64,000 bases of DNA, taken from Candidatus Magasanikiibacteriota bacterium (GTDB taxonomy: Bacteria > Patescibacteriota > Patescibacteriia > Magasanikbacterales > UBA922). Both the position numbers and the translations under genes were made by a program. Shown here piece after piece: positions 6,183-61,404 of the stretch. Every line of letters begins with the position of its first letter. Position 1 is the first letter of the stretch. Under the pieces are notes generated by a model. It was not told the origin of the DNA and ran no database searches. It saw only the letters and a program-made list of their open reading frames with translations. The stretch lies in the NCBI GenBank assembly GCA_018650645.1, contig JABIFP010000020.1:8385-72384 (forward strand), read 5' to 3'.

Positions 6183-6253
6183 AGAATCCTATTGTATCAT
6201 ATTGGCTCTTGACGACCTATAGCCACTATTATAGTGTATACACATAGTCCTGA

Positions 6254-6565
6254 ATGAATCTTTGGAGTGACCACGTGGATAGATTTTTCGTTCCGCTTTG
6301 TTTTGGTGCGATCACCGCTGTTATTGCTTTTACGATGTGGATTGGTGATACCAGTACACCCGTTCCCAAAAAAATGGTGAGCGAGGCGCTAGCAAACGCT
6401 ACTTGCAAAATCGACAATGCGGTACCCGCAGGTACCTGCAAGATTGACTGCGAGCTAGATGAGGCGCTGGCCCAACAGCATCAAAAGAAGCGCATTACGG
6501 TGACTGGAAGAACGTGCTTCAAGCTGAAAAGTCGGCTACATGCCGCATCAGCAGACGCTCAGTAG
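6254..6565 (+). CDS. hypothetical small membrane-anchored protein in a GC-rich islet
   Basis: One N-terminal TM helix and an internal near-duplicate peptide (ATCKIDNAVPAGTCKIDCELD). It is followed by two hairpins, one with a T-run. Coding status is uncertain. Confidence 0.25.
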   Translation: MNLWSDHVDRFFVPLCFGAITAVIAFTMWIGDTSTPVPKKMVSEALANATCKIDNAVPAGTCKIDCELDEALAQQHQKKRITVTGRTCFKLKSRLHAASADAQ

Positions 6566-6583
6566 CCGAGACAATCCATCGCC

Positions 6584-6641
6584 GCGGCGCTCTCACATAG
6601 AGCGCCGCATTTTCAATATTACGCATTATGCGTTTTTTTTA
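6584..6641 (+). terminator. tandem hairpins (GCGGCGCTCT/AGAGCGCCGC, then ACGCAT/ATGCGT plus T8)
   Basis: A perfect 10-bp stem-loop is followed by a second hairpin that ends in eight T. Confidence 0.5.
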
Positions 6642-6658
6642 TCCACTGCTATTAATAG

Positions 6659-6687
6659 TTGACAAAAACACTAATCTGCGCTAGTAT
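6659..6687 (+). promoter_or_regulatory. sigma70-like promoter: TTGACA, 17-bp spacer, TAGTAT
   Basis: Consensus -35 and a good -10 lie about 45 nt upstream of the AAGGAGG ribosome-binding site and the ATG of the response-regulator gene. Confidence 0.45.
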
Positions 6688-6730
6688 TAGTTAATTCACC
6701 CAGACAGAAAATACAAACCAAGGAGGTTTC

Positions 6731-7174
6731 ATGGACGGGGAATTGCGGGTTTTGATCGTAGATGACGATGCGCCAGTGCTCACGTCACTTGAGCGAGGAT
6801 TTCGGTCCTTCGTGCGTAAAGCTGATGGTGAGCTTGTCATCACAGCTGTCCGCGCCAGAGATGGCAAGGAGGCTCTCGAGCAGCTCACCTCATCGCGCTT
6901 CGACATCATGATCACCGATGTCGACATGCCCACCATGAATGGAATTGAGCTGCTGAAGCGAGTCTTTAACGGCGAGCGAGATCACATACCGCCGATCATC
7001 CACGCATGGACCGGTGGCAATCACAACCGGCTGCAGGAACTGGAGAATCCTGCAAACAACTGTGGCGCCGCCTACACCCATGGCGTGAAGGAAGAACTGG
7101 TTCAGCGGGTACGAGAGCTGGCCAACAAGGCCATCGCTTTCAAAGAAAGCAAGGAGAAGCAAGAGGCCGCCTAG
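6731..7174 (+). CDS. stand-alone response-regulator receiver (REC) domain protein (CheY-like, no output domain)
   Basis: Carries LIVDDD...DIMITDVDMPTMNGIELLK, the REC acidic pocket and phospho-acceptor Asp. It has a strong Shine-Dalgarno sequence and is GC-rich relative to its neighbours. Confidence 0.8.
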   Translation: MDGELRVLIVDDDAPVLTSLERGFRSFVRKADGELVITAVRARDGKEALEQLTSSRFDIMITDVDMPTMNGIELLKRVFNGERDHIPPIIHAWTGGNHNRLQELENPANNCGAAYTHGVKEELVQRVRELANKAIAFKESKEKQEAA

Positions 7175-7206
7175 ACCACCCTGGTCTAGGCGGCCGCAAA
7201 CACAAA

Positions 7207-7233
7207 GACGGCCTTCGGGCCGTCCTTTCTTAT
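7207..7233 (+). terminator. intrinsic terminator (GACGGCC ttcg GGCCGTC plus T-run)
   Basis: A GC-rich 7-bp stem with a UUCG loop is followed by CTTTCTTATTTT, immediately 3' of the REC gene. Confidence 0.6.
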
Positions 7234-7234
7234 T

Positions 7235-8419
7235 TTAGAACTGCTGCGCAATGCTCACACCCATTCCACCTAGTAAAAGAAGGAGTAATACTATACTAAG
7301 CACCTTTACACTCACTGCGCGCGAGGGCTTCATATATACATCTCCTATATGCAGTGCTTTGATAAATATAAGCACCACCAAAATCATTTGAATACTAACA
7401 AGGATTCCCCCAACAGCACCAAGCACACCAATAAAACTCGTTATACCCAGTGTAAACAGTAGCAGTGGCAATCCTAATACAACCACACCACTTACTCTTT
7501 TTGAAAAAGACAAATCCCACTCACATGAATGCTTAAGCGCAAGCCCCACAAGCAAAAAACTCGTTGCCATAGCAATAACAGCAAACGCATTCCCTAAATA
7601 CACCATTTGCGGACCAACCACACTGCCAAGGCCAATGGTTGCAATCTGCGTTGTCTGCCCCCCAGTGACAGAAACAATCATAAACGCAAACAGCGCATAA
7701 AGCACCGTGGTAATTGAACCCGCCAAAATGACAGCCTTTGTAAATTGCTTTTTTTTCTTTGGTAAAAGTGCATGCGCTTCTGGCACTGCCGAGACAGCGC
7801 TAAACGCAAATAAACTCACTCCATACGGAATGGCAAACTTTGCTAAATCATAAAACATCAGATTTTCTACAGAAATATGTGGCGCGCTCACGGCAGACAT
7901 AAAAAATATAATCAAGAGCATGCCAAGACTGAGTACAAGCTCGACTGTCTTCATTGTTTTAATGCCACGCATGACAAGGAGCGAAGCAAAGATCCAGAAC
8001 CCGACTGAAAACACAAATGCACTTCCGCCAAACATCGCCGCCAGTGTTTCACCCACACCAATAATATAAATGAGCATGCCGGAAAGCATCGAGACGTAAA
8101 AGGCAAACATCATGATCACCTCTCCTGTTCTGCCAAGATATGTTCTTGCAAGGCCTACAAGCTGTAATGATTTTCCTGTATGTGCGCAGACTGTTGCTAG
8201 TAGCACATGCATAATCATCATCGCAATTCCAAGCGCAACAATGAGTAACACTCCAGGCAGTACTCCAACTTGCGCAACCGCATATGGAATTCCAAGTACC
8301 CCCGCGCCAATAGTTGCGCTCACAATCAGTGCAACAGCCTGCCACATGGTCAGCTGTTTTCTAAAAAATCCTAAATATTGTTTGACAGGCGTATGCATAA
8401 TGCAGAAAGTATACCACAA
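7235..8419 (-). CDS. amino-acid permease (APC/HAAAP-type transporter)
   Basis: About 11-12 TM helices and an IGAGVLGIPYA motif typical of aromatic and hydroxy amino-acid permeases. Confidence 0.65.
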   Translation of the reverse strand: MWYTFCIMHTPVKQYLGFFRKQLTMWQAVALIVSATIGAGVLGIPYAVAQVGVLPGVLLIVALGIAMMIMHVLLATVCAHTGKSLQLVGLARTYLGRTGEVIMMFAFYVSMLSGMLIYIIGVGETLAAMFGGSAFVFSVGFWIFASLLVMRGIKTMKTVELVLSLGMLLIIFFMSAVSAPHISVENLMFYDLAKFAIPYGVSLFAFSAVSAVPEAHALLPKKKKQFTKAVILAGSITTVLYALFAFMIVSVTGGQTTQIATIGLGSVVGPQMVYLGNAFAVIAMATSFLLVGLALKHSCEWDLSFSKRVSGVVVLGLPLLLFTLGITSFIGVLGAVGGILVSIQMILVVLIFIKALHIGDVYMKPSRAVSVKVLSIVLLLLLLGGMGVSIAQQF

Positions 8420-9149: not shown

Positions 9150-9223
9150 GCGCGCCTAGCTCAGTTGGTTAGAGCATCTCGTTTACACCGAGAGGGTCAG
9201 GGGTTCGAATCCCTTGGCGCGCA
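9150..9223 (+). tRNA. tRNA-Val (anticodon TAC)
   Basis: Cloverleaf with GCGCGCC/GGCGCGC acceptor stem, a GCTCAGTTGGTTAGAGC D-arm, anticodon loop TTTACAC and GGTTCGAATCC T-arm. CCA is not encoded. Confidence 0.9.
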
Positions 9224-9259
9224 CGAATGAGACCATCGCTACCGCTCATTTATGACGCA

Positions 9260-9288
9260 AAACACAGCCACTCACGGCTGTGTTTTGG
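9260..9288 (+). terminator. intrinsic terminator after tRNA-Val
   Basis: A CACAGCC/GGCTGTG stem is followed by TTTTGG. Confidence 0.5.
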
Positions 9289-9319
9289 TTTGTACGGCCA
9301 CCTCCAGGTCCCAGCATAA

Positions 9320-9350: not shown

Positions 9351-9364
9351 TTCTTTACGTAATA

Positions 9365-14594: not shown

Positions 14595-16226
14595 TTAGGT
14601 AATGGCCGCTTTGATAAATGCAGCAAATAATGGATGCGGTGACATTGGGCGAGATTTAAACTCTGGATGGAATTGCACACCAACAAAGAATGGATGCTTT
14701 TCAAGCTCTACAATCTCAACCAAATCTTCTTTTTTGTTTACACCCGAAATTTTCAGTCCAGCCTTATCGATTTGCTCTTTGTAATCATTGTTAAATTCGT
14801 ATCGGTGTCTATGTCTTTCTGAAATCGCGTTTTGTCCATATGCTTTTTTAGCAACAGACCCTTTTTTCAAATCACAATCGTACGCTCCTAATCTCATTGT
14901 ACCACCATATCTATCATTTGTAATATTCTTACGCTGATTTGGATTTACGTGAATCACAGGATGTACCGTTGCATCATCTACTTCAACTGTATGCGCTTCA
15001 GGTTTTTTTAGCACATTTCTTACAAATTCAATACACGCTAATTGCATGCCATAACAAATTCCCAAATACGGAATATTTTTTTCACGTGCGTATTTTATTG
15101 TTGAAATAATTCCTTCAATCCCTCTGGTTCCAAATCCACCTGGCACTAAAATACCATCATAGTCTGAAAGTGTTTTCAATTTGGCTGGATTATTTTCAAA
15201 ATCCTCTGAATCAATCCAAACTAATTTTGGTTTTGCGCCATTTGCCCATGATGCATGCTTCAGCGCTTCAATAACAGAGATATAACTGTCTGAAAGTGTA
15301 TATTCGCCGGTACCAAAGTATTTTCCAACCACTCCAATTTTCACTTCCTTTTTTGCACTTGAAATCTTTTTATTCAGTTTTAGCCATGGAGTTAAGTCTG
15401 ATTTCCTGCTACTCATGCCGAGTAGCTTTAAAAGCTTATTTCCGATTTGCTGATCATCCATCTTTTGAGGAATCTCATAGATAGACTCAACATCAGGAGC
15501 CGAAATACACATTTCTTTTGATACTCCACAAAATCTTGCTAATTTTTCTCTTCTTGGTGTATCTAGCTCATATTCTCCTCTGGCTACAATCATGTCTGCA
15601 TTAATACCTGTGTGATTTAATGCGCGCGCAGCATGTTGTGTTGGCTTTGTTTTCATTTCACCGATATGTTTTGGAACTGGTAAATAACTAACCAAAACAA
15701 CCGCAACATCTTGCGGGTTCTTTAACTTGAGTTCTCTGATTGCCTCAAGAAACAAAATATTTTCGTACTCACCTACTGTTCCTCCAATTTCCATGATGGT
15801 AATATCCGCATCATGCAATTTTCTTGCAACGTTAATGCGTCTAATGATCTCTTCAGGAATATGTGGCACAACCTGCACACATCTTCCTTTATATTTCATT
15901 GACCGCTCATTTTCAATGACACTCTGATATACACGCCCTGTTGTCATGTAATTGGTGCTGGTCAAATCGATTTCTAAAAAGCGTTCATAATTCCCCATGT
16001 CTTGATCCGTCTCGTCTCCGTCATCAGTTACAAATACCTCTCCGTGTTCAATCGGATTCATGGTACCAGCATCGACGTTTACATACGGATCAGCTTTCAA
16101 TGCCGTAGCTTTATATCCCTTTGATCTCATGATGGCCCCAATCGAGGCGCTGGTTACTCCTTTTCCCACTCCACTTAGTACTCCCCCCACAACAAAGATA
16201 AACTTTGGGCGCAATTTTTTTGCCAT
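14595..16226 (-). CDS. pyrG: CTP synthase
   Basis: The N-terminal synthetase domain VVGGVLSGVGKG and a C-terminal glutamine amidotransferase with its GICYGMQ motif. Length is 543 aa. Confidence 0.95.
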   Translation of the reverse strand: MAKKLRPKFIFVVGGVLSGVGKGVTSASIGAIMRSKGYKATALKADPYVNVDAGTMNPIEHGEVFVTDDGDETDQDMGNYERFLEIDLTSTNYMTTGRVYQSVIENERSMKYKGRCVQVVPHIPEEIIRRINVARKLHDADITIMEIGGTVGEYENILFLEAIRELKLKNPQDVAVVLVSYLPVPKHIGEMKTKPTQHAARALNHTGINADMIVARGEYELDTPRREKLARFCGVSKEMCISAPDVESIYEIPQKMDDQQIGNKLLKLLGMSSRKSDLTPWLKLNKKISSAKKEVKIGVVGKYFGTGEYTLSDSYISVIEALKHASWANGAKPKLVWIDSEDFENNPAKLKTLSDYDGILVPGGFGTRGIEGIISTIKYAREKNIPYLGICYGMQLACIEFVRNVLKKPEAHTVEVDDATVHPVIHVNPNQRKNITNDRYGGTMRLGAYDCDLKKGSVAKKAYGQNAISERHRHRYEFNNDYKEQIDKAGLKISGVNKKEDLVEIVELEKHPFFVGVQFHPEFKSRPMSPHPLFAAFIKAAIT

Positions 16227-16285
16227 ACATCAGGTTTAGACAAGATTATACTGACAAGAGTATAGCACATTGAACAAATTCTGTT

Positions 16286-16315
16286 TATGGAAAAGCCCGG
16301 CTCTGAAGCCGGGCT
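16286..16315 (-). terminator. intrinsic terminator for the GC-rich minus-strand islet gene
   Basis: An AGCCCGGC/GCCGGGCT stem is followed on the minus strand by TTTTCC. Confidence 0.4.
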
Positions 16316-16338
16316 GTGTGGGGCGCCTGCGCGCGCGT

Positions 16339-16632
16339 TCATTGTTTGAACGCGTACGCAATTGAGAACGCGGCCATCGCCACGAAGATGACAGGGAACC
16401 AGACAAACCGGTACTTGTCGACCGGGTCAATCACCCAGTGATCGAACCATGTTTTCGGATTTGGACGCTTATTTTCCACAGATCCTCCCTTATGTGGTAC
16501 AGCAGTAATATCACATCTACAAAAAAATGCAACCCTATTCCTTATCTCATCCTGAACAACCACAACTGAAAGTTTGGGGCGTTGAAGGATCCTTCGATGC
16601 CCCGGCTGCGCCGAGGTTACTCTGGATGACAT
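16339..16632 (-). CDS. hypothetical small tail-anchored membrane protein in a GC-rich islet
   Basis: A basic N-terminus and a single C-terminal TM helix (FVWFPVIFVAMAAFSIAYAF) in a roughly 60% GC segment. Start is set at the internal ATG. Coding status is tentative. Confidence 0.3.
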   Translation of the reverse strand: MSSRVTSAQPGHRRILQRPKLSVVVVQDEIRNRVAFFCRCDITAVPHKGGSVENKRPNPKTWFDHWVIDPVDKYRFVWFPVIFVAMAAFSIAYAFKQ

Positions 16633-16707
16633 TTTTTCTTGCGACCTGCCTAACGGCCTGGCTACCTGCAAACGGCAGGCAGGCTCTGAATGGTCCAGTT
16701 TGCAACC

Positions 16708-17154
16708 CTACGCCGAAACGGTCACCTTCACAGCAACCCGCACACCACTACTCAAAACAAGAGTCGGTTTATACGATCCGACCTCTTTCATACCACCTAC
16801 CGACTCAACTTTTTTAATAGTCACGCTCCCAAGCGTATCAGCAAGGGCTGCCTGCAGATCTGATGCCGTTATAGCAGCATACAGCTTTCCACCCTCATTT
16901 GCCGTCCTCTGGAGCTTCACATGCACTGAAGCTAGCCGTTTTTCCACAGTTTTCTTCTCTTTTGACTGCCGTTTCTTCAGTTTTTCTTGCTTTTGCTTCA
17001 TTGCGGCAATTTTAGCCACTTTTCGGGCTGCTGCGACCGTAGCGAGGCCCTTTTTTATCAAAAAATTGTTCGCATATCCGTCAGATACATCGATTACCTC
17101 CCCCTTCTTTCCTTTTCCAGCCACATCGGCCAATAAAATTACTTGCATAGACAC
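16708..17154 (-). CDS. rplI: 50S ribosomal protein L9
   Basis: N-terminus [31 protein letters not shown] matches the L9 N-domain, and the C-domain is also present. Confidence 0.9.
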
Positions 17155-17209
17155 TTGATTTAATTCGAGTTTTAGGCTATATTAAGCGCATTCAACCAAT
17201 CATCACATT

Positions 17210-18076
17210 ATGAAATCAGGTCTTGTTGTCCTTGTTGGACGATCAAATGTCGGAAAATCGACACTCATGAACACGTTAGTCGGCACAAAAATTGCTGCCA
17301 CTTCTTTTCGGGCGCAATTAACCCGTCACATTATCCATGGTGTCATGAATAATCCAGAAGGGCAAGCAGTCTTTGTTGACACCCCCGGTATTTTCAAAGA
17401 TAAACGAAGCGAGCTGACTGCAAAATTAACACGAAAAGCGCAAGCAGCTGTTGTTGATATTGATGTCATTGTATACGTCGTAGACCCAACCCGTGAAATT
17501 GGTACAGAGGAGCGAGCGGTATTTGGTATGATCCGATACATTAATAAACCAAAAATCATGGTTATTAATAAATCAGATCTTCATTATGATGATAAAAAAC
17601 ACTACGCAGAATATGAAAAGTGGGCTGATGAGTTTGATGAAGTGTTCCACTTGTCTGCTCTTAAAGGATCTCACATTACCCCACTCAAAAATGCCGTCAT
17701 CGATTTTCTTCCAGAAGGTGAACAGCTGTATCCAGACGATCAGCTGACAAATATTGATAACTATTTCTGGATTGCTGAACTTATCCGTGAAAAAATCTTT
17801 AGTGTATTAGACAAAGAACTTCCATACTCAGTATCTGTAGAGGTAGACAATGTAGAAGATAAACCAGAACGAGATGGAAAACCACGCACAATGGTCATTA
17901 AAGCGCGCATCCTTACAGATGAAGAGCGCTACAAAAAGATGATTATTGGAAAACGTGGAATGAAGATTAAAGAAATTGGACTTATCTCTAGAAAAGAATT
18001 AGAGCAATCAACCGGCACAAAAGTATATCTAGAATTGGAAGTAGAAGTTGATAAGCATTGGGTAGAACGATTGTAA
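17210..18076 (+). CDS. era: GTPase Era
   Basis: G1 motif GRSNVGKST, G3 DTPG, G4 NKSD and a C-terminal KH domain. Confidence 0.9.
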   Translation: MKSGLVVLVGRSNVGKSTLMNTLVGTKIAATSFRAQLTRHIIHGVMNNPEGQAVFVDTPGIFKDKRSELTAKLTRKAQAAVVDIDVIVYVVDPTREIGTEERAVFGMIRYINKPKIMVINKSDLHYDDKKHYAEYEKWADEFDEVFHLSALKGSHITPLKNAVIDFLPEGEQLYPDDQLTNIDNYFWIAELIREKIFSVLDKELPYSVSVEVDNVEDKPERDGKPRTMVIKARILTDEERYKKMIIGKRGMKIKEIGLISRKELEQSTGTKVYLELEVEVDKHWVERL

Positions 18077-18086
18077 CAAAAAATGA

Positions 18087-18108
18087 AAGCCGCATCATGC
18101 GGCTTTTT
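18087..18108 (+). terminator. intrinsic terminator after era
   Basis: GCCGCA tca TGCGGC followed by T5. Confidence 0.6.
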
Positions 18109-18154
18109 GAATACCACAGACTTATGATACCCTACCTGCACTTAACTATAGTAT

Positions 18155-18835
18155 ATGAGTCAGGAACCCTTTGGAGGAGATAAAAAAGTTGGCCCAGCAT
18201 CAATTTTTGGACCACTTGAACGACGTGCAATCGACTGGACAGTTCCAAAACTCCCAAAATGGATGACAAGCGCAAGACTGACCATGACCACCGTGCTTTG
18301 GAGCCTTATGATAGTATTAGGAAGTTTCCTTGCCGAGCATATGAATATTCATTGGTTGTGGCTTGTTTCAGCAACGATTCTTATGCAATATATAACAGAT
18401 TCATTAGACGGCTCATTGGGAAAATATAGAGGAGAAGGTCTTGTGAGATGGGGTTACTATATGGATCATTTTTTGGATTATATATTCCTCTGTTCGATTA
18501 TTGTTGGATACGGCTTTTTCCTTCCTGATGATCAGAAATATTTATTATTTTTTGTTTTTGCCCTGCTCACAGCATTTATGGTTAACGCCTTCCTAGCAAT
18601 GGCAGCAACAAATAAATTTAGAATCACGCACATGGGCATTGGGCCAACAGAAATTCGATTGCTATTCATTGTTATCAATACCCTTATCATGTTATTTGGA
18701 AAAACGCATGTCGCCTTCTTACTTCCATATGTATTAGGACTTTCTTTGCTTGGACTTTTGTATCTTGTCTACACCACGCAAAAAGAAATATGGGCAATGG
18801 ATATGCAGGTGCTTAAAACAAAAAAAGACCTCTAA
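18155..18835 (+). CDS. CDP-alcohol phosphatidyltransferase family membrane protein
   Basis: D(x2)DG(x2)GR-like motif ITDSLDGSLGKYRGEG...DHFLD embedded in a multi-pass membrane protein. Confidence 0.7.
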   Translation: MSQEPFGGDKKVGPASIFGPLERRAIDWTVPKLPKWMTSARLTMTTVLWSLMIVLGSFLAEHMNIHWLWLVSATILMQYITDSLDGSLGKYRGEGLVRWGYYMDHFLDYIFLCSIIVGYGFFLPDDQKYLLFFVFALLTAFMVNAFLAMAATNKFRITHMGIGPTEIRLLFIVINTLIMLFGKTHVAFLLPYVLGLSLLGLLYLVYTTQKEIWAMDMQVLKTKKDL

Positions 18836-18843
18836 AGTCTCCT

Positions 18844-18872
18844 GAGCAGGTGGGTTTCCCCACCTGCTCTTT
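18844..18872. terminator. GC-rich hairpin (GAGCAGGTGGG/CCCACCTGCTC), putative terminator
   Basis: An 11-bp perfect stem lies between convergent genes, but the T-run is weak. Confidence 0.4.
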
Positions 18873-18891
18873 GGTTGCTGCATGTGTTCAC

Positions 18892-19425
18892 TCAATGGCG
18901 GAGCCCCGAAATTGGCCGCATGGTCTTGTTCACCGGATCGATGATCCACCCCGTAGCAAAAGGGAGCGTCTCTTCGAACCGGATGTCTTGCGGCATATTC
19001 AAGGCACGAAGCATGTAAATGATGAGCCACGCGCCGATGCTTCCGTGCATCACGAGTACCCGCAGACACTGGTGGGACTGCGAATCAGCAACGAAGCTCT
19101 TTGCATAGCGCTTCAGCAACTCATTGCTGGGCCCATCACCCGATGTCTCGTTCAACTGAGCATCAGCTGAGCAAGCTGGAGTTCCCTCAAGCGCAGACGC
19201 AAGTGCGTTCCGGCTGTGGAGCACATGCGGTGTGCTTGCCGACATCAGCATGATCTCATTGCATCTGCCCAGCTGCTCTGAAATACATACCCCGAGATTG
19301 CGCATCTGCTCCTCCCCCGCAGGAAGCAGATGGCAATTAATGTCCCGCGCGCCATGCCGCACCACTATAATGCAGCCCTTCAGGCTTTGCCCAGCCTGAG
19401 TATTAATCTCCTGTTCAGCAACCAT
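18892..19425 (-). CDS. histidine phosphatase superfamily protein, SixA-like phosphohistidine phosphatase, in a GC-rich islet
   Basis: The RHG catalytic motif in IIVVRHGARD and a second His motif (VMHGS) late in the protein. GGGAGGG Shine-Dalgarno before the ATG. Confidence 0.55.
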   Translation of the reverse strand: MVAEQEINTQAGQSLKGCIIVVRHGARDINCHLLPAGEEQMRNLGVCISEQLGRCNEIMLMSASTPHVLHSRNALASALEGTPACSADAQLNETSGDGPSNELLKRYAKSFVADSQSHQCLRVLVMHGSIGAWLIIYMLRALNMPQDIRFEETLPFATGWIIDPVNKTMRPISGLRH

Positions 19426-19477
19426 TGAACCCTCCCGTTGATGTGTGCTATCTTAACTTTACTTATGAATAGAAAAC

Positions 19478-48840: not shown

Positions 48841-50628
48841 TTATTTTTTTCTTCCTGTTCTCTTTCTGTCTGATTCCGTAAGCGCTTGTTTTCTAATACG
48901 AATGCTTAGCGGAGTGATTTCTAAATACTCATCCTCTGCAATTGTTTCGAGTCCGCGCTCTAACGTAATGTCAATCGGTGGAGTCAAGTTCAGTGCATCA
49001 TCAGCTCCAGAAGAACGCATGTTAGTAAGCTGCTTTCCTTTAATAGGATTTACTGACATATCTTCACCTTTGGCAACATTCCCAATGACCATTCCTTCAT
49101 ACACTTGCACAGTTGGTCCAATGTATAACGCGCCTCTATCTTGCAAATTTGCAAGTGAGTATCCGAGCGCCTTTCCGGCACACATAGAAATCATTGATCC
49201 TACAGATCGTTTTTCAATGGTACCTGAATATTCTCTAAACCCAACAGTACGGCTAGCCATGATTCCTTCTCCCTTTGTGTCCATGATGAATTGCCCTCGG
49301 TATCCAAGAAGTCCACGTGAAGGAATTTCGAAGAGCAATCGATTTTGGCCATTTTCTGAAGTCATGTTTACCATGATTCCCTTTCTTTTTCCCATTTTTT
49401 CAATCACAGTTCCTGAAAATTCTTCTGGCACATCAACTGTTACTTCTTCGTATGGTTCCTGTTTCTTTCCATCTACCTCACGAATAATTACTTGTGGTTG
49501 AGAAACTTGAATTTCAAATCCTTCTCTTCGCATTTGCTCAAGTAAAATTGCAATGTGCAATTCTCCTCTTCCAAATACTTTAAATCGATCATTTTCTGAA
49601 AAATCAACTTGCAATCCAACATTTACTTCCAACTCTTTTTCTAATCTTTCTTTAATTTGTCTTGTTGTTACAAATTTTCCTTCTTTCCCTGCAAACGGTG
49701 AGTTGTTTACTAGAAAATCAATTCCAATCGTCGGCTCATCCACGCGAATAGCAGGTAAAGCTTCTTGATCTGCGTTTTCACAAATTGTTTCTCCAATATC
49801 GATGTCTGCAATTCCAGCAAGCATCACAATGTCTCCTGCCCCAGCTTCTTTCACTTCAATGGTATCGAATCCTTTAAACTGTTGAAGCTTAGTAATTGAA
49901 GCAGTTCGAGTTTCTCCATTTGGTTTTTTTACAATAACTTTTGCTCCAGCTTTTACAACTCCTTCATAAATTCTTCCAATTGCAAGTCGACCAACAAAGT
50001 CGTCGTACCCAAGGTTGAATGGTTGCATTTTAAATGGAACGTCTATTTTACTTTCTGCTGCTGGCACATGCTCCATAATCATATCAAGCAGTGGAGTCAT
50101 GTCCGTCGATTCGTCATTCAATTCTTTCATTGCGATTCCAGCCTTCCCGTTTGAGTAGCAATATGGGAATTCAAGTTGATCAGCATCAGCACCAAGATCA
50201 ATAAAGAGCTCAAGTACCGCGTCATATACATATGCCGGTCTTGCTGCTGGTTTATCGATTTTGTTGAGCACCACAAGAGGTTTCAATCCGAGTTCCAAAC
50301 TCTTTTTCAATACAAATTTTGTTTGTGGCATTGGTCCTTCTTGTGCATCTACTACCAAAATCACCGCATCGATTGAACGAAGGACACGTTCTACCTCTGA
50401 ACCAAAATCAGCATGCCCTGGCGTATCCACGATGTTAATTTTTGTGTCTTTATAATAAAGCGTCGTGTTCTTTGCATAAATAGTAATTCCACGCTCTTGT
50501 TCAAGCGCGTTACTATCCATACTCTTCGCTTCGTCGCTAACCATGCCAGTTTGACGTAAAAGCGCGTCCGTTAGTGTTGTTTTACCATGATCTACATGGG
50601 CGATAATCGCAATATTTCTGATATCCAT
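48841..50628 (-). CDS. typA: translational GTPase TypA/BipA
   Basis: MDIRNIAIIAHVDHGKTTL start, EF-G-like domains and a BipA C-terminal domain. The start is set at the Met preceded by a promoter and Shine-Dalgarno sequence; the ORF track extends 52 codons further upstream. Confidence 0.9.
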   Translation of the reverse strand: MDIRNIAIIAHVDHGKTTLTDALLRQTGMVSDEAKSMDSNALEQERGITIYAKNTTLYYKDTKINIVDTPGHADFGSEVERVLRSIDAVILVVDAQEGPMPQTKFVLKKSLELGLKPLVVLNKIDKPAARPAYVYDAVLELFIDLGADADQLEFPYCYSNGKAGIAMKELNDESTDMTPLLDMIMEHVPAAESKIDVPFKMQPFNLGYDDFVGRLAIGRIYEGVVKAGAKVIVKKPNGETRTASITKLQQFKGFDTIEVKEAGAGDIVMLAGIADIDIGETICENADQEALPAIRVDEPTIGIDFLVNNSPFAGKEGKFVTTRQIKERLEKELEVNVGLQVDFSENDRFKVFGRGELHIAILLEQMRREGFEIQVSQPQVIIREVDGKKQEPYEEVTVDVPEEFSGTVIEKMGKRKGIMVNMTSENGQNRLLFEIPSRGLLGYRGQFIMDTKGEGIMASRTVGFREYSGTIEKRSVGSMISMCAGKALGYSLANLQDRGALYIGPTVQVYEGMVIGNVAKGEDMSVNPIKGKQLTNMRSSGADDALNLTPPIDITLERGLETIAEDEYLEITPLSIRIRKQALTESDRKRTGRKK

Positions 50629-50680
50629 ATGTATGATGAAAGAAAAAGCGCTCACCAATGTGAGGCTTTGTATTGGCGCG

Positions 50681-50709
50681 AGTATACTCCCTAGCGCCAT
50701 TTTTGTCAA
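50681..50709 (-). promoter_or_regulatory. near-consensus sigma70 promoter for typA (TTGACA, 17-bp spacer, TATACT)
   Basis: On the minus strand, TTGACA aaaatggcgctagggag TATACT lies about 50 nt upstream of the typA ATG. Confidence 0.5.
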
Positions 50710-50749
50710 TGTCTGGTTGGCCGCCTTTTCGGGCGGCCAGTGGTTTTCT

Positions 50750-50998
50750 TCATCGGCATACCGAACAGGGATAGGATACCCCAAGCCGGTTCACCCTGCC
50801 GCGCCCACAGCACCTCCAACAATCCGGCCCCTCCCTGGGCTTTTTTTTCTCTGAGGTATCAGGCGTTTTCTCCCTCAGTTCATCACTCGAGAGCTCTTGG
50901 CACGAACACGTATACTCACCGCGCACACCATTCTCCTCTCGGATCCCAACCCCGCTGCCACCACAGCTGCGACATCGAGACGTGTTATATCCACCCAT
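50750..50998 (-). CDS. cysteine-rich small protein with DnaJ-type CxxCxGxG zinc-finger repeats, in a GC-rich islet
   Basis: CRSCGGSG and CWRCCGRG match CxxCxGxG, and additional CxC and CxxC pairs are present. A strong GGAGGTG Shine-Dalgarno sequence precedes the start. About 55% GC. Confidence 0.5.
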   Translation of the reverse strand: MGGYNTSRCRSCGGSGVGIREENGVRGEYTCSCQELSSDELREKTPDTSEKKKPREGPDCWRCCGRGRVNRLGVSYPCSVCR

Positions 50999-51110
50999 GT
51001 AACACCTCCTTTCGGTGTATATAGATTATCTCAAATCCTACGCATTCAGTAAATAGATTGAATTCATGTAAAAAAAACGCTATTATGAACCTATATTATT
51101 AATCACGTTT

Positions 51111-55792: not shown

Positions 55793-56803
55793 TTATTGTT
55801 TCACGATTCTGATTCCTGCTCGTTTAGCAGCACTATGGTAGTAGTCATACTTTACCGCGTAGGTAGCATCATCGTATGTGAAATAGTGGGTCTTGCCACT
55901 ATATAGTGTGTATACGTGTGTCTTACCTGCATTGATTCGGTATGATACGTAGTTTTTATTTACACTTTTAAGTTTGATGGTTAATCCACTTTCGTGCCAA
56001 ATGACATCATTTGAACATGCTTCGTAGAGTCCATCATCACCGGCACTATCACCACATGAAAATGTTTGTGATACTACTGGTGTTTTTTTAACCGGTGCTT
56101 TCTTGAACACTGGTTGTTTTTTCTTTGGCGTATATGTGCGTTTCTTTGTAACCACACGCTCACTTGTTTTTGTTTTCACAATGGTAAGTGAATCGAGTTC
56201 TTCAGAAAGCATAGTGTTTCCGTAGTCGATAGAAATTTTCGCCATTGGACGAGCGGTCTTGAACGCAATAAATGCGTAGTCTGTGTTTTTCACGTTTCTT
56301 TGCGTGATAACACCAAGTCGCTTTCCTTTTCTATCATAAGCGCGAATTCGCGCTACAGTATTTCCATTACCATTGGCAATGTGGAATCCAACCATATCTA
56401 CGTCGTCTTTGAAATTCATCCAAAGTGCACGATTTTTACTGGTTTTTGGATATACCGCACTATTGGTAATCGACATACTTCCTGATGCTGCCGGAGCATC
56501 ACCACGATTGTAGTCGTTAATAGTGAAAACTTTTGAACCAGATCCATAGAATTTCACACCATGTGAATTCCAGTATTTGGTTTCGACATTTTCACCTGTG
56601 TAGGTATCTTCAAAATCAATTGAGACACCGCTCATACCGAACAGCGTAGTTGCTGAGACGATACTTACACTATTCATGCCACTTGAGACGTAAGCACGAT
56701 TATTTGTAGAAGAATGAGATGCATGTACAGGATGTACAGCTGTTAGTACCGTAAGAGCCGAAATGGCAATTGCAGTCGCTAACGAGACAAGTCTTTTTTG
56801 CAT
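55793..56803 (-). CDS. secreted hypothetical protein (signal peptide, beta-rich)
   Basis: Cleavable signal peptide and no recognizable motif. Confidence 0.45.
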   Translation of the reverse strand: MQKRLVSLATAIAISALTVLTAVHPVHASHSSTNNRAYVSSGMNSVSIVSATTLFGMSGVSIDFEDTYTGENVETKYWNSHGVKFYGSGSKVFTINDYNRGDAPAASGSMSITNSAVYPKTSKNRALWMNFKDDVDMVGFHIANGNGNTVARIRAYDRKGKRLGVITQRNVKNTDYAFIAFKTARPMAKISIDYGNTMLSEELDSLTIVKTKTSERVVTKKRTYTPKKKQPVFKKAPVKKTPVVSQTFSCGDSAGDDGLYEACSNDVIWHESGLTIKLKSVNKNYVSYRINAGKTHVYTLYSGKTHYFTYDDATYAVKYDYYHSAAKRAGIRIVKQ

Positions 56804-57544: not shown

Positions 57545-58615
57545 CTACAGCGAATTAGCCACTACCTCTGGCATCTGCTCCACCCGCTCCACCCAAAACG
57601 TCTCTCTACCCAAAATCTGCCCAAACGACGTCTCTACCTGTACTCGATACTTCCCTGCTCGCGGAGATCTATCAAAAGAATACCCGCGGAACCCTTCTTT
57701 TCTGCCTCCATATATAGGATACGTGATTTTCCCATCAGAAACCCAGCTATCAGTCTGCTCATTCCACCTATACCAATGATGCACAATATCTGCTGTCAGC
57801 TTCCCCGGCGCAACTATTGAGGTAAATACATATACTGGACCATTTTGCACATGCACAGTCTTTTTAAATGAAAGCTTCTGCATGAATGACTGCTTTTCTT
57901 CTTGGACGAGGTATGCATTCCCCTGCCGCTCGACGCTGTGATACACGCCGCTATGATATACAGAAAGCGGCACTGGAGGAATCGCATTAGCTAAATACAG
58001 CCCTCCCATACATAAAAATAATATTCCCATTATATACACGATCCCATACTGCACCTGCGCAACTCGCGGTGATCTGTTTCTGAGTAGCCAAATGATAAGC
58101 CACACAAATGCCATGGCGAGCGCACCCGAAACAAAAAACCATGCAGGGTGAATCGATCCAACAAAAAATGGTAGCGCAACTGCTAAACTTAAAAAAACTG
58201 CAATATAGAGTAATGGAAAATGAACAAGTGGCCAAACATACGCATGTGCCAATCGCTCGTTTGATACCATAAGCAGCACTACTAACAGTAACAGCGGCCA
58301 TGAAGCAGAAAGTGCGCTACTAAACGAGTAAAATATAAGTGCCCCACTCAGCAGTGCACCAAAACTAAATTGTAAAAAAAATGGAACCGCTCGTCTGAGC
58401 TTCCCTAGCCGTCCTTCTTCAGCAACCAAATGGATAATACTGATAGCGAGAACAACGATACCTACATGTGCTGTGAGCACCCAAAGTGCACTCGTTAACG
58501 ACACTGTGCGAAATGTAATGATATCAACAATAAACCCAAGCACAAGCATGGCCGGTAAATAATACCGCTCATTTTTTTTGTAATATGCTATGGATTTTTG
58601 GATGGCTTGTTTCAT
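57545..58615 (-). CDS. polytopic membrane protein with a C-terminal soluble beta-domain
   Basis: About 9 TM helices followed by a roughly 140-aa extracytoplasmic domain. No motif recognized. Confidence 0.45.
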   Translation of the reverse strand: MKQAIQKSIAYYKKNERYYLPAMLVLGFIVDIITFRTVSLTSALWVLTAHVGIVVLAISIIHLVAEEGRLGKLRRAVPFFLQFSFGALLSGALIFYSFSSALSASWPLLLLVVLLMVSNERLAHAYVWPLVHFPLLYIAVFLSLAVALPFFVGSIHPAWFFVSGALAMAFVWLIIWLLRNRSPRVAQVQYGIVYIMGILFLCMGGLYLANAIPPVPLSVYHSGVYHSVERQGNAYLVQEEKQSFMQKLSFKKTVHVQNGPVYVFTSIVAPGKLTADIVHHWYRWNEQTDSWVSDGKITYPIYGGRKEGFRGYSFDRSPRAGKYRVQVETSFGQILGRETFWVERVEQMPEVVANSL

Positions 58616-58711
58616 GTATCTATAATAGCATAAAATGAATATTTATTTCTTACCCTTGACATGAGCACTTTTTTTTGGTACATTCTTTTGTCCGCACTAG
58701 AGCGGGCAAGG

Positions 58712-58866
58712 AGAATGCTGATGGGTATCCGATACCCGATGTGTAAGTTCTGTTTTAGCACCACCGGCAAGCATGCGGACGATTGTCCCTTGAAGCAACG
58801 GAAGCCGTCGATCTCTCTGATCCTGACGGTTGGTGCCATTAGTCTTGTCGTGATCAAGCTCGCATA
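58712..58866 (+). CDS. candidate 50-aa zinc-ribbon plus single-TM mini-protein in a GC-rich islet
   Basis: AAGGAG Shine-Dalgarno sequence, ATG, CxxC...HxxxC N-terminus, then a C-terminal TM helix, followed by a strong terminator. Confidence 0.25.
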
Positions 58867-58932
58867 GCGCTAGCTGACACGCACCTTGCACAACTCCGTA
58901 GCCGACTGCGAACACCGCGGTCGGCATTGATT

Positions 58933-58966
58933 AAAAGCACACCAGTTTCCTGGTGTGCTTTTATTT
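58933..58966. terminator. intrinsic terminator hairpin (AGCACACCAG tttc CTGGTGTGCT) with flanking A/T runs
   Basis: Perfect 10-bp stem. Part of the duplicated block next to tRNA-Thr. Confidence 0.6.
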
Positions 58967-58984
58967 GAGCCATCATCGGGAATT

Positions 58985-59131
58985 TCACGTCGGCTTTTCA
59001 GCCTCTCCAATGGGGCTTCCGCCCCCTATGGCGCTCAACTCTTCGGTTTCACTGTTACCCCCACAGCAAAAGTGGGAAACTATCGTTTCCCAAACCCTTC
59101 CCGCTTCAATCTCTTGCAGTAGAGCAAAATC
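58985..59131 (-). pseudogene. degenerate tRNA-Thr-like duplicate (pseudo-tRNA) sharing the terminal 19 nt of tRNA-Thr(GGT)
   Basis: The reverse complement retains GGCTG, CCCGATGATGGCTCA and GCGCCATA acceptor-like pieces, but the D and T stems are disrupted. It is flanked by the 54-bp duplicated block (58931-58984 and 59132-59184). Confidence 0.35.
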
Positions 59132-59167
59132 ATAAAAGCACACTTCTCGTGTGCCTTTATGATTTTG

Positions 59168-59240
59168 AGCCATCATCGGGAATTGAACCCGAGACCTCAG
59201 CCTTACCATGGCTGCGCTCTACCAACTGAGCTATGATGGC
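59168..59240 (-). tRNA. tRNA-Thr (anticodon GGT)
   Basis: Reverse complement GCCATCA-TA-GCTCAGTTGGTAGAGC-G-CAGCC-ATGGTAA-GGCTG-AGGTC-TCGGGTTCAATTCCCGA-TGATGGC-T forms a canonical cloverleaf. Confidence 0.85.
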
Positions 59241-59284
59241 TTGATGTGCCAGCAGTATACACGGCACAAGCTCACTCGTCAATG

Positions 59285-60358
59285 CTACCCCTTCTGCATT
59301 TTCACAACCTGCGTTGGGTATGCAAACTCGATTCCTTTTTTCTTTAACGCCTCATGCAGCTCCATATGAATGTGCTGCCTAATATCCATGTACACGCCAT
59401 AATCTGCCTTTTCTACATGATACACCACCTCAAAGTTTAAGCTTGATTCTCCGTACTCAAAGAAGTGAGCACGGCCAAAAGTTGCCCCTTTTGTTTTATC
59501 AATAATCACCTTTATCATTTCTGGTACTGCAGCAATTTTTGCTTTTGATGTTTCGTATATGATTCCAAAAGTAAATACATCACGTCGACGTTTCATTTTT
59601 TTGTAATTCTGCACAGTAGAAGACGTCAGTTCTCTATTTGGAATAATCAATTCTGATCCCTTTAGTGTTTGCAATCGACTCGTTTTCAGTCCAATATGCT
59701 GTACGGTTCCAGAATTTTCTCCCACAATAATAAAGTCACCAACTTGAAACGGTTTATCAATCAAGAGTGAAAACGAACTAAACAAATCGCCCAAAATATT
59801 TTGAAGCGCAAGCGCAATAGCAATACCACCTATCCCTAAGCTTGCAATAAGTGAGGTAACATTAAAGCCACTGTTTGAAAGAATCAGCAGAATTGCCATA
59901 CCCCAAAGAGCTGCAGAAATAACAACGCGAACAAATCGCAGCATGGTCCCAATTTGTGCAGCCTGCTCCTTATTTTTTTCTTGCTTCTGATGCAGGTACT
60001 GTTCTAGCGCTGCAACGAAAAAAGCATTAATGGCACGTATAATTCCATATGCAATACCTATATACGCAAACCCTTCTAACGTTCGCTCTATCCAGTGCAC
60101 AAGGGCAAGCGGTCTCATTGCTACAAGTATTGCCACACCCAAATAAAACAGTGAACTAAGCTGCCCTATCGCAGTAATAGCCATATCGTCTATATGCGTT
60201 TTTGTATGCGATGCCATTTTATGAATTCTTCCAATGACCACTTTCTTTACAATATGCACCAATAGTAGAACAATACAGAACAATCCGATTGCCTTAGCAT
60301 ATGTAAGAACATCATTACCCCAATACGTATCTGATATGAAAAATGGAGCCTGCCACAT
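59285..60358 (-). CDS. MscS-family mechanosensitive channel
   Basis: Three N-terminal TM helices and the conserved MscS beta-domain (GDFIIVGENSGTVQHIGLKTSRLQT). Confidence 0.8.
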   Translation of the reverse strand: MWQAPFFISDTYWGNDVLTYAKAIGLFCIVLLLVHIVKKVVIGRIHKMASHTKTHIDDMAITAIGQLSSLFYLGVAILVAMRPLALVHWIERTLEGFAYIGIAYGIIRAINAFFVAALEQYLHQKQEKNKEQAAQIGTMLRFVRVVISAALWGMAILLILSNSGFNVTSLIASLGIGGIAIALALQNILGDLFSSFSLLIDKPFQVGDFIIVGENSGTVQHIGLKTSRLQTLKGSELIIPNRELTSSTVQNYKKMKRRRDVFTFGIIYETSKAKIAAVPEMIKVIIDKTKGATFGRAHFFEYGESSLNFEVVYHVEKADYGVYMDIRQHIHMELHEALKKKGIEFAYPTQVVKMQKG

Positions 60359-60479
60359 AATGGATATTTGTTATGATTATGCGAAAATTATACCACAAGC
60401 AAGCAAGGTTTGATATCATTTGCGCCTGTACATATTGCTGTTATACTCAAGAGAGACAACTATTCATTATATACAGGCT

Positions 60480-60935
60480 ATGCAACTCACCGGAAAAAAG
60501 GCACCTGCACTTACATTGCAAGATCAAGATGGCGTTTCTATCTCATTAGCCGATTATTTAGGCAAAAAAGTACTTCTCTATTTTTACCCAAAAGATGACA
60601 CTCCAGGCTGCACAAAAGAAGCCTGTAATTTTAGAGATCGATTAAATGAATTACAACAGCACGGTGTACAAGTACTTGGCGTCAGTAAAGATTCAGTCAC
60701 ATCGCATAAAGCTTTTGCAGACAAATTTCAGTTAAATTTCCCGCTTCTTTCTGACGAATCAACTGATACGATTCAAGCGTATGGTGTATGGAAGGAAAAA
60801 TCGATGTTTGGAAAAACGTATATGGGTATTTCACGCGATTCTTTTTTGATTGATGAAACTGGTGTCGTGCAAAAACACTATCATAAAGTAAAACCTGCAA
60901 AGCATGTAGATGAGGTTATAAAAGACCTTACCTAA
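60480..60935 (+). CDS. bcp: peroxiredoxin Bcp (thiol peroxidase)
   Basis: FYPKDDTPGCTKEAC peroxidatic Cys motif. The start is set at ATG 60480; the ORF track begins at an upstream TTG. Confidence 0.85.
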   Translation: MQLTGKKAPALTLQDQDGVSISLADYLGKKVLLYFYPKDDTPGCTKEACNFRDRLNELQQHGVQVLGVSKDSVTSHKAFADKFQLNFPLLSDESTDTIQAYGVWKEKSMFGKTYMGISRDSFLIDETGVVQKHYHKVKPAKHVDEVIKDLT

Positions 60936-61008
60936 ATAAAAGAAGACACAACCGAAATGTGTCTTCTTTTATTTCCTCCTTTTTACGTTAATTTGCTCGG
61001 ACAGATCA

Positions 61009-61347
61009 CTAGTGCAGCATCCTCTGAACTGTCCTGATAATCTGCCAGCCCTGCGGCTCATTGAAGAGCGCACCTTGCGGATACTCCTCCGCCATGTACA
61101 TCTGGTATAGCGCGCGCTCCAGCGCACTGCGCGAGTCTTCATCACTAACCCACGAAACGACCTGCTCCCTGTTCAAAAAGCTATCGTCGATGATGGCGTG
61201 GCAACCGATCAACCTATCCATCCAAGTTGGAAGCCCTCGCCGCTGACAAGGCACAAACGGCCGTGTCCAGAGCTCGATACGAAACAACTCCCCATTATCG
61301 AGGTCGCCTTCATGCGGTACATACGCGAGTACGAATGCTGCCGCCAT
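61009..61347 (-). CDS. hypothetical protein in a GC-rich islet
   Basis: GGGAGGG Shine-Dalgarno sequence and ATG, preceded by TTGACG, a 17-bp spacer and TAATAT. No known motif. Confidence 0.4.
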   Translation of the reverse strand: MAAAFVLAYVPHEGDLDNGELFRIELWTRPFVPCQRRGLPTWMDRLIGCHAIIDDSFLNREQVVSWVSDEDSRSALERALYQMYMAEEYPQGALFNEPQGWQIIRTVQRMLH

Positions 61348-61404
61348 GTTCCCTCCCTTCATTTCTACATTAGGTATATTACCTTTTTTTTCTTGTTCGT
61401 CAAG

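Follow-up and report, generated by a model that had tools for sequence, protein, structure and literature searches.

GC-rich, Shine-Dalgarno-led small genes lodged between native transcription units of a Candidatus Magasanikbacteria chromosome

Members of the candidate phyla radiation (CPR) are ultra-small bacterial symbionts that have reduced genomes and have not been cultured, and little is understood of the ways in which they acquire and express new functions. The DNA analyzed here, a stretch of 64,000 nucleotides of contig JABIFP010000020.1 (assembly GCA_018650645.1) referred to below as the window, belongs to the chromosome of a marine Candidatus Magasanikbacteria (CPR/Patescibacteria) and has a mean GC content of 42.6%. 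Between its native genes lie eight short GC-rich segments, the islets, each carrying one small gene except islet 1, which carries two.

Composition and translation signals of the islets

Scanning of the sequence in 400-nt windows (mean GC content, 0.426) revealed GC-rich segments at the eight places reported in the initial annotation. GC contents were 0.50 to 0.57 at 6201-7400 (peak of 0.57 at 6801-7200), 0.47 to 0.51 at 16001-17000, 0.54 to 0.57 at 18801-19400 (peak of 0.57 at 19001-19400), 0.57 to 0.605 at 30801-31800 (peak of 0.605 at 31001-31400), 0.54 to 0.60 at 41201-42600 (peak of 0.598 at 42201-42600), and 0.47 to 0.51 at 58601-59400, with additional peaks of 0.53 at 50601-51000 and 0.525 at 61001-61400. 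Part of the bump at 58990-59240, beside islet 7, is a tRNA gene, and that at 63400-63800 consists of tRNA genes. At gathering thresholds, Rfam models detected four tRNAs only in the window.

GC content at third codon positions (GC3) was compared between the nine islet open reading frames (ORFs) and the 52 native genes of the window. Native genes displayed a GC3 of 0.348 ± 0.050 (range, 0.28 to 0.48), versus 0.51, 0.66, 0.66, 0.64, 0.83, 0.74, 0.58, 0.67, and 0.67 for the islet ORFs in their order along the window (z = 3.3 to 9.7; Mann-Whitney P = 2e-6). Composition was non-native for all nine islet ORFs, as previously proposed, and the GC content of four-fold degenerate sites tracked GC3. The islet proteins were tilted to Arg over Lys and to Gly, Ala, Arg, and Pro, indicating that the compositional bias is general and extends beyond codon choice. 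Per-gene composition also bore out the AT richness noted previously for the native genes atp, rplI, and infB. The native gene with the highest GC3 (0.48) is a 127-aa ORF (3487-3870, minus strand) beside the atp operon, which has no Pfam match and is conserved in the population. The GC-rich tracts spanned the transcribed regions, comprising part of the 5' untranslated region (UTR), the coding sequence (CDS), the 3' UTR, and the terminator, and the promoters were AT-rich. The noncoding transcribed parts of the islets had GC contents of 0.44 to 0.56, versus 0.30 to 0.39 for native spacers. An additional GC-rich noncoding stretch (16531-16707; GC content of 0.53) is present beside islet 2 and reaches the rplI stop codon.

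A strong Shine-Dalgarno (SD) sequence had been noted ahead of most islet genes. Inspection of start codons by eye revealed such a sequence, 5 to 10 nt upstream, for eight of the nine islet ORFs and for none of the 52 native genes (Fisher P = 3e-9), the latter lacking even a 5-mer SD core. The islet sites were AAGGAGGT (twice), TAAGGGAGGA, GGGAGGG, GGAGG, AAGGAGA, GAAGGGAGGG, and AGGTG. The sole islet ORF devoid of an SD sequence is the first ORF of islet 1 (6254-6565), which also has a mild GC3 (0.51). Native starts (for example, 17210; 27224-30601, 35043-37094, and 40483-41001, all three on the minus strand) had AT-rich upstream sequences, frequently with a TAnAAT-like hexamer abutting the ATG. 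Judging from these sequences, core genes in this Magasanikbacteria lineage seem to use a non-SD, possibly short-leader, mode of initiation. Among 67 related CPR loci (1.05 Mb), 27 contained ORFs with a GC3 at least 0.2 above the local median. Based on crude gene calling, an SD motif of at least 6 bases preceded 21 to 36% of these GC3-outlier ORFs versus 5% of native-like ORFs, a 4- to 7-fold difference.

Anatomy and cargo of the transcription units

A promoter, a CDS, and a hairpin could be assigned to each of the nine islet ORFs, in agreement with the proposal that the islets are discrete, self-contained expression units of non-native composition. All of them are located between native transcription units and none inside an operon. 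The features are listed below with the native genes bordering each slot; the CDS coordinates of islets 2, 4, 7, and 8 (16339-16479, minus; 31004-31576, plus; 58721-58867, plus; 61009-61347, minus) are corrected ones. TM stands for transmembrane segment.

6209-6633, plus strand: islet 1 (slot BacA/Aa_trans), unit a; promoter TTGACG(6209)-17-TAGTGT, no SD
6254-6565, plus strand: ORF of unit a, 103 aa, N-terminal TM, GC3 of 0.51
6584-6608 and 6621-6633, plus strand: hairpins of unit a, then a T-run
6659-7234, plus strand: islet 1, unit b; promoter TTGACA(6659)-17-TAGTAT, SD AAGGAGGT
6731-7174, plus strand: REC-only response regulator of unit b, 147 aa, GC3 of 0.66
7165-7195 and 7207-7224, plus strand: hairpins of unit b, then a T-run
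16290-16535, minus strand: islet 2 (slot rplI/pyrG); TTGCAT promoter-like box, SD TAAGGGAGGA, hairpin at about 16294-16317
16339-16479, minus strand: CDS of islet 2, GTG start, 46-aa tail-anchored mini-protein, GC3 of 0.66
18844-19484, minus strand: islet 3 (slot CDP-alcohol transferase/CysRS); promoter TTGACA(19484)-17-TAAAGT over the CysRS start region, SD GGGAGGG
18892-19425, minus strand: CDS of islet 3, 177-aa RHG-motif (SixA-like) protein, GC3 of 0.64
18844-18869: bidirectional terminator of islet 3
30655-31915, plus strand: islet 4 (slot LeuRS/GDH); promoter TTGACA(30675)-17-TAATTT, SD GGAGG, 5' UTR of about 300 nt with a hairpin, GC-rich 3' region of about 300 nt
31004-31576, plus strand: CDS of islet 4, 190-aa orphan with an N-terminal CSD-like motif, GC3 of 0.83
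About 31888-31915: terminator of islet 4, common with gdh
41057-42665, plus strand: islet 5 (slot PPase/DUF805); promoter TTGACT(41064)-17-TATTAA, 5' UTR of at least 125 nt
41225-42514, plus strand: NhaA Na+/H+ antiporter of islet 5, GC3 of 0.74; a later ATG may be used as the start
About 42575-42600 and 42620-42663, plus strand: hairpins of islet 5
50716-51053, minus strand: islet 6 (slot bipA/mscL); promoter TTTACT(51053)-17-GATAAT with a TG extension, SD AAGGAGGT
50750-50998, minus strand: CDS of islet 6, 82-aa CxxC/CxxCxGxG zinc-finger mini-protein, GC3 of 0.58
50716-50741: GC hairpin of islet 6, directly upstream of the native bipA promoter (TTGACA at 50709)
58656-58984, plus strand: islet 7 (slot DUF2914/tRNA-Thr); promoter TTGACA(58656)-17-TACATT, SD AAGGAGA
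58721-58867, plus strand: CDS of islet 7, 48-aa zinc-ribbon/TM mini-protein, GC3 of 0.67
58932-58963: terminator hairpin of islet 7, followed by a 21-nt copy of the tRNA-Thr 3' end at 58964-58984
58964-59240, minus strand: att-like scar, direct repeat TTTGAGCCATCATCGGGAATT at 58964-58984 and 59164-59184, 200 bp apart
60934-61403, minus strand: islet 8 (slot bcp/helicase); promoter TTGACG(61403)-16-TAATAT, SD GAAGGGAGGG
61009-61347, minus strand: CDS of islet 8, 112-aa protein of unknown function, GC3 of 0.67
60934-60974: bidirectional terminator of islet 8, common with bcp

Of 17 occurrences of the motif TTGACN-N16-18-TANNNT in the window, six drive islet ORFs and seven drive native units (tRNA-Val, tRNA-Thr, the tRNA operon, atp, infB, bipA, and 55793-56803). 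The textbook promoters attributed to the islets were thus confirmed for six of the nine ORFs; NhaA of islet 5 has TTGACT-17-TATTAA, and the boxes of islets 2 (TTGCAT, identified by eye) and 6 are weaker matches to the consensus. The motif is not specific to islets: seven native units share it, indicating that the near-consensus promoter is the host's own type. Enrichment at islets (6/9 versus 7/52; P = 0.002) mainly reflects the fact that each islet is its own transcription unit. Hairpins were present 3' of all units, several of them resembling intrinsic terminators or being bidirectional, and some are common with the neighboring gene. The terminator-like hairpins of the initial annotation were therefore found.

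Comparison with the closest relative showed that islets 4 and 5 immediately follow the -35 boxes of native promoters, namely, that of the divergent leuS promoter (TTGCAA, 30654-30649, minus strand) for islet 4 and that of the ppa promoter (TTGCTT) for islet 5. A candidate islet-edge motif (GCAACCCTA, GCCCTTGAC) was not enriched and is accounted for by the -35 boxes of adjacent native promoters; likewise, the GCAAC string seen at the edges of islets is the -35 box of the divergent native promoter. The -35 box of islet 3 (TTGACA, 19484-19479, minus strand) overlaps the annotated first ATG of CysRS. Alignment with orthologs suggests that the true CysRS start is at 19487, in which case the islet 3 promoter and the native divergent promoter would be interleaved within 61 bp, an arrangement kept in the closest relative.

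Solid functional assignments were obtained for two islet proteins. The REC-only response regulator matched PF00072 (E = 1e-13). NhaA matched PF06965 (E = 3e-45; 155 bits versus a cutoff of 23.5) and scored 115 bits against TIGR00773, below the equivalog cutoff of 254, which makes it a divergent member of the family. The label of SixA-like phosphatase given to the islet 3 protein is weak: the RHG motif is present in both the window protein and its ortholog in the closest relative (locus L024), but the TIGR00249/His_Phos_1 test gave only a sub-threshold SixA match for the latter (E = 8e-5; 22.5 bits versus a cutoff of 74.5), and the window protein had no match in Pfam or the PDB. Similarly, the CSD-like label of the islet 4 protein corresponds to an N-terminal motif recognized by eye, without match in Pfam, NCBIfam, or the PDB; its single-sequence AlphaFold model (pLDDT of 31) was unusable. 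Sequence searches of these three databases returned no match for the first protein of islet 1 or for the proteins of islets 4, 6, and 8. The descriptions of the mini-proteins held upon inspection of the translations, those of islets 2 and 7 being recognizable only as membrane-anchored. Rfam, at gathering thresholds, detected no riboswitch or leader in the long 5' UTRs of islets 4 and 5.

Occupancy of the slots in related genomes

Chimeric assembly or binning contamination could have introduced GC-rich fragments into an AT-rich contig, and the source is indeed a metagenome, in which GC-rich stretches within AT-rich contigs are a recognized sign of chimerism. We give this possibility virtually no weight. 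Searches with the REC protein of islet 1 and IF2 recovered, from many ENA, JGI, and Logan samples, contigs sharing at least 99.8% identity with the window, and the same islet junctions were present at 99.8 to 100% identity in independent assemblies of several assemblers and samples (ENA megahit, JGI, Logan, SPAdes). The same slots are occupied by islets in two other species, and islet edges coincide with functional promoter and terminator elements. Assembly chimerism is excluded. IF2 and CTP synthase assign the window to Candidatus Magasanikbacteria, and the islet proteins have been deposited at NCBI (MBT4153471-503) within a metagenome-assembled genome named Ca. Magasanikbacteria. Contigs containing the exact islet proteins represent a single clonal population and carry no information on presence or absence; among them, no single-nucleotide polymorphism (SNP) was found inside the islets, the few SNPs being all located outside.

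Relatives were found by protein searches and contig look-ups; a scan of genome contigs with IF2 returned only a spurious Lactococcus locus. The closest relative is GCA_041294365.1 (loci L020 and L024; 85% identity for IF2 and 88% for PyrG), and the second is GCA_964522435.1 (loci L021 and L025; 67% and 78% identity, respectively). Both have GC contents of about 40 to 42% and contain their own GC-rich, SD-led units bounded by promoters and terminators. The comparison of slots, which covered islets 1 to 5, gave the following occupants.

BacA/Aa_trans slot: islet 1 in the window; empty in L025 (86 bp)
rplI/pyrG slot: 46-aa tail-anchored peptide (islet 2) in the window; in L024, a 43-aa mini-ORF, also tail-anchored but different, bearing its SD and terminator; empty in L025
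CysRS/Era slot: 177-aa RHG protein (islet 3) in the window; 167-aa RHG protein in L024; two unrelated GC-richer ORFs in L025; empty in L035 (36 nt) and L030 (116 nt)
GDH/LeuRS slot: 190-aa orphan (islet 4) in the window; ECF sigma factor in L020; 48-aa TM peptide in L021
DUF805/PPase slot: NhaA (islet 5) in the window; empty in L020 (105 bp); NhaA beside PPase in L021, with a GC3 of 0.70 and 37% identity to the window NhaA

Each of the three occupants of the GDH/LeuRS slot exceeds its surroundings in GC content and is equipped with a TTGACA promoter, an SD sequence, and a terminator. The 189-aa gene present in the CysRS/Era slot of L025 had no detectable similarity to islet 3. Thus, the slots of islets 1, 3, and 5 are empty in at least one relative. 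Presence was patchy: islets 1, 4, and 5 are missing from at least one relative, islet 3 was found only in the closest relative, and the islet proteins had essentially no homologs in 80 related loci.

The cassette of islet 3 is orthologous in the closest relative, in which about 80% of the 80-nt region containing the promoter, 5' UTR, and SD sequence is kept, together with the N terminus of the protein and the terminator hairpin. Identity between the two proteins is 27 to 29% (dN = 0.99), versus 78% for the flanking CysRS and 87% for Era (dN = 0.09 to 0.15). Native synonymous sites are near saturation between the window and this relative (NG86 dS of 1.0 to effectively infinite). Under conserved residues, four-fold sites of native genes were identical at a frequency of 0.397 versus 0.305 at saturation, corresponding to a memory of 0.13, or 0.36 per lineage. 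The islet GC3 gradient fits differing ages, since islet 4, missing from both relatives, has a GC3 of 0.83 versus 0.64 for the shared islet 3. The independent acquisition previously proposed thus holds as far as the discreteness of the units and their empty slots in relatives are concerned, but not all acquisitions are recent or independent, islet 3 being orthologous in the closest relative.

Other units of the relatives and other genes of the window deserve mention. In L025, a GC-rich unit (5400-5700) comprising a CCCTTGACA promoter, a long GC-rich leader, and a AAAGGAGG SD sequence encodes only an 8-codon His-rich ORF (MKRMHHHM) followed by hairpins; as drawn from its sequence, it could be a leader peptide/attenuator or a small RNA. 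In L024, a 1.7-kb tract of 58 to 63% GC (16377-18126) contains two genes, one for a 377-aa collagen-repeat protein (SD AAGGAGG) and the other a 146-aa ORF. It corresponds in position to tRNA-Val and other genes of the window and is thus a bigger islet of this style. The window gene for a Big_5/PG_binding_1 protein (887 to 891 aa; ORF 37771-40446), which contains tandem 342-nt repeats of about 71.5% mutual identity at 38491-39179, and the adjacent 149-aa ORF are missing from the closest relative (L020); their native GC content and lack of an SD sequence place them in a different, native-looking class of accessory genes. LeuRS (27224-30601, minus strand; 1125 aa) harbors a NUDIX domain inserted between tRNA-synt_1 segments, as in both relatives, and exceeds its orthologs (944 and 966 aa) by about 160 to 180 residues. 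Between trx and gdh, a 449-aa protein (33213-34562, minus strand) matches PF08014 (MATCAP), a family named for a eukaryotic microtubule-associated tyrosine carboxypeptidase; it is 57% identical to its counterpart in the closest relative and is replaced by a DUF4349 protein in L021. A 916-aa ORF (44176-46926, plus strand) contains no Pfam domain and is conserved in the population.

Origin and significance of the islets

The initial annotation had suggested a cassette-like acquisition mechanism. Integration by a recombinase at a recognizable site, the islets being integron-like cassettes or remnants of tRNA-targeting elements, would account for their discreteness and cassette-like size, and the tRNA-Thr 3' end is directly repeated over 21 nt at the edge of islet 7, in the manner of a classic att scar. 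The second copy of this repeat (TTTGAGCCATCATCGGGAATT) overlaps the 3' end of tRNA-Thr(GGU) (59167-59240), and a similar hairpin precedes each copy; the repeats bound only a 179-bp spacer (GC content of 0.49) containing no convincing gene and no integrase. From this arrangement, the repeat is probably the scar of an old, decayed integrative element. An integrase-bearing element is also present at tRNA-Val in another sample of the same strain background (L002), which departs from the window just past this tRNA gene (window, 9150-9291; L002, 12300-15450). This insert, missing from the window, encodes a tyrosine integrase (381 aa), an HTH_17 excisionase-like protein, and small ORFs. It was ruled out as a GC-rich vector, its GC content being native-like (0.38 to 0.45) and SD sites being absent. 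Apart from the repeat beside islet 7, the search of islet boundaries revealed no att or attC site, no shared boundary sequence, no target-site duplication, and no array: all-versus-all comparison of the islets (blastn-short) revealed nothing above chance, and neither flanking direct repeats of at least 10 nt nor common attC-like inverted repeats were detected. The units are scattered, each with a promoter of its own, the gene lists of the window contain no integrase, and seven of the eight islets are not adjacent to a tRNA gene. For these seven, site-specific acquisition is largely refuted, and a dedicated mechanism of this type appears highly improbable overall. Integron gene cassettes are similarly small, mostly single-gene units, often encoding small proteins of unknown function, but the islets lack attC, an array, intI, and a common Pc promoter, each having its own promoter.

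We consider it reasonably probable that the islets are single-gene horizontal captures from higher-GC, SD-using bacteria into permissive intergenic slots. A high-GC donor had been proposed, and NhaA offers partial support. NhaA homologs are chromosomal and of native composition in two metabolically rich non-CPR genomes (L107, 60% GC; L108, 72.5% GC), and NhaA genes are GC-richer than their neighbors in two low-GC, apparently CPR-like loci (L022 and L023), each CPR copy being GC-richer than its own genome. In a neighbor-joining tree with long branches and identities of at most 41%, CPR copies were scattered and polyphyletic among non-CPR copies of 60 to 72% GC, and the window copy formed an isolated long branch that is not sister to the L021 copy. 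This topology would fit several independent captures of NhaA from high-GC bacteria and argues against simple vertical descent at the PPase slot. The idea that NhaA has stayed GC-rich since the ancestor of the window and L021 was dropped, since the tree does not support orthology of the two copies. No close donor was found, and viral-contig scans for islet 4, islet 8, and the REC protein returned no relatives. Individually transferred genes and genomic islands account for up to 13% of genomes in a survey of Patescibacteria that does not mention codon or nucleotide-composition patterns (PMC12455944).

Several observations weigh against capture. Homology searches detected no donor above 36 to 45% identity among 1.8 to 5.8 billion proteins: the best non-self matches of NhaA were 36 to 41% identical (5.8 billion clustered proteins), and islet 4 had 12 matches, the best being 45% identical over 116 aa (1.84 billion representatives). 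The NhaA tree is only a neighbor-joining tree with long branches. Islet promoter regions are AT-rich and of the host type and may not have arrived with the genes. The islet 3 cassette is older than the split from the closest relative, and two slots carry the same family in two genomes at 27 to 37% identity, which requires very fast evolution or repeated capture. Amelioration was tested by a simple relaxation model with entry into the common ancestor at a GC content of four-fold sites (GC4) of 0.9 to 1.0. The values observed for islet 3, about 0.62 in the window and a GC3 of 0.59 in L024, exceeded the 0.51 to 0.55 predicted under neutral decay, an excess of about 2 standard errors for a single cassette and about 100 four-fold sites. 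Islet 3 is therefore old and its amelioration at best slow, which leaves room for active maintenance of GC content but does not prove it.

Such maintenance is the core of another explanation, according to which the islets would form a resident, lineage-maintained class of old Magasanikbacteria genes whose high GC content, instead of being a donor remnant, is kept by selection for stable or structured mRNAs translated through a separate SD-dependent route (a distinct stress and signaling regulon) or by GC-biased gene conversion at accessory loci prone to recombination. The conservation of islet 3 (promoter/5' UTR/SD region kept at about 80%, terminator kept) and the GC3 of both copies (0.59 to 0.64) despite near-saturated native synonymous sites would be expected, as would GC enrichment over the whole transcript, UTRs included, ending at the promoter. 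The SD-led and GC-rich classes coincide in the window, the cargo is biased toward signaling and stress (REC, SixA-like, ECF sigma, CSD-like, NhaA, DnaJ-type zinc finger), and donors were not found in very large databases. We nevertheless regard this explanation as unlikely, since the excess of GC in islet 3 is small and limited to one cassette, slots are empty or differently filled in relatives, and almost no homologs of islet proteins are present in the 80 related loci. NhaA has relatives in high-GC non-CPR genomes, the window and L021 copies are not sisters, and the spread of GC3 between islets (0.51 to 0.83) is that expected from different ages or donors. The absence of strain SNPs in the islets gives no sign of current hyper-recombination or hypermutation. 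A broader form of this proposal, in which Magasanikbacteria-type CPR would combine an AT-rich, non-SD core with a turnover-prone, GC-rich, SD-led class of signaling, stress, and small membrane protein genes, each having its own promoter and terminator and a GC content actively maintained by mRNA-level selection or biased gene conversion, is likewise doubtful; if true, the GC-rich SD-led genes would be a translationally separate regulon in an organism otherwise ignoring SD sequences.

Under the capture scenario, a host with AT-rich core genes whose translation starts without SD sequences would have received genes in separate events of different ages. We infer higher-GC donors, stress or signaling roles of the cargo, and an entry route that was probably the uptake of foreign DNA followed by illegitimate recombination. 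The units would lodge at a few permissive intergenic sites separating native transcription units, in many cases next to a divergently oriented native promoter, and would be retained because they form complete expression units with a host-readable sigma-70-type promoter, an SD sequence, and an insulating terminator. The SD sequence would let the structured GC-rich mRNA be translated, and the terminator would insulate the neighbors. After entry, fast divergence of the protein would be accompanied by a slow drift of base composition toward that of the host. Reuse of the slots may explain why relatives hold different genes there or very divergent versions of the same family.

The islets are best placed among horizontally acquired genomic islets or moron-like units, a kind already known, here in an unusual host and with an unusually clean double signature. 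Phage morons, reportedly described by Juhala et al. and by Hendrix et al. in 2000, are likewise single ORFs of deviant composition, each equipped with a sigma-70-type promoter and a factor-independent terminator of its own and interposed between genes that are contiguous in relatives and do not need it. Unlike morons, the islets reside in a housekeeping chromosome (atp, infB, leuS, pyrG, cysS, bipA), had no relatives in the viral-contig scans (islet 4, islet 8, and REC), and differ from native genes in translation start (SD versus non-SD). They share with genomic islets and integration hotspots (including those of PMC12455944) the location of atypical accessory genes between core genes, differently filled junctions, and, for NhaA, apparent phylogenetic incongruence. 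They differ from usual genomic islets in that the units are tiny (0.3 to 1.7 kb, one gene), dense (eight in 64 kb), and devoid of recognizable mobility genes. They also combine a high GC content with an AT-rich host, whereas bacterial genes of recent acquisition are reportedly AT-rich in most cases (Daubin et al., 2003). The graded GC3, with the newcomer islet 4 richest and the shared islet 3 less so, resembles the amelioration of foreign genes said to have been described by Lawrence and Ochman in 1997, except that islet 3 is somewhat GC-richer than the neutral model allows for its divergence. A non-SD bulk combined with a small strong-SD set, possibly under separate translational control, also recalls Flavobacteria/Bacteroidota, in which rpsU is reportedly SD-led and the anti-SD sequestered (work attributed to Jha et al., 2021, and McNutt et al., 2023). 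The islets differ in that they belong to another phylum and that their SD-led genes are foreign in composition and vary from one relative to the next; the window does not contain the 16S 3' end.

The capture scenario would correspond to about one captured gene per 8 kb in the window. Two independent sequence marks, a high GC3 and an SD sequence in a non-SD genome, provide a simple flag for acquired genes and for the search for donors or hosts. The cargo may bear on adaptation to a partner or to low-oxygen (oxygen-minimum-zone) water. If GC content is maintained rather than decaying, the islets would point to a second, SD-dependent expression regime.

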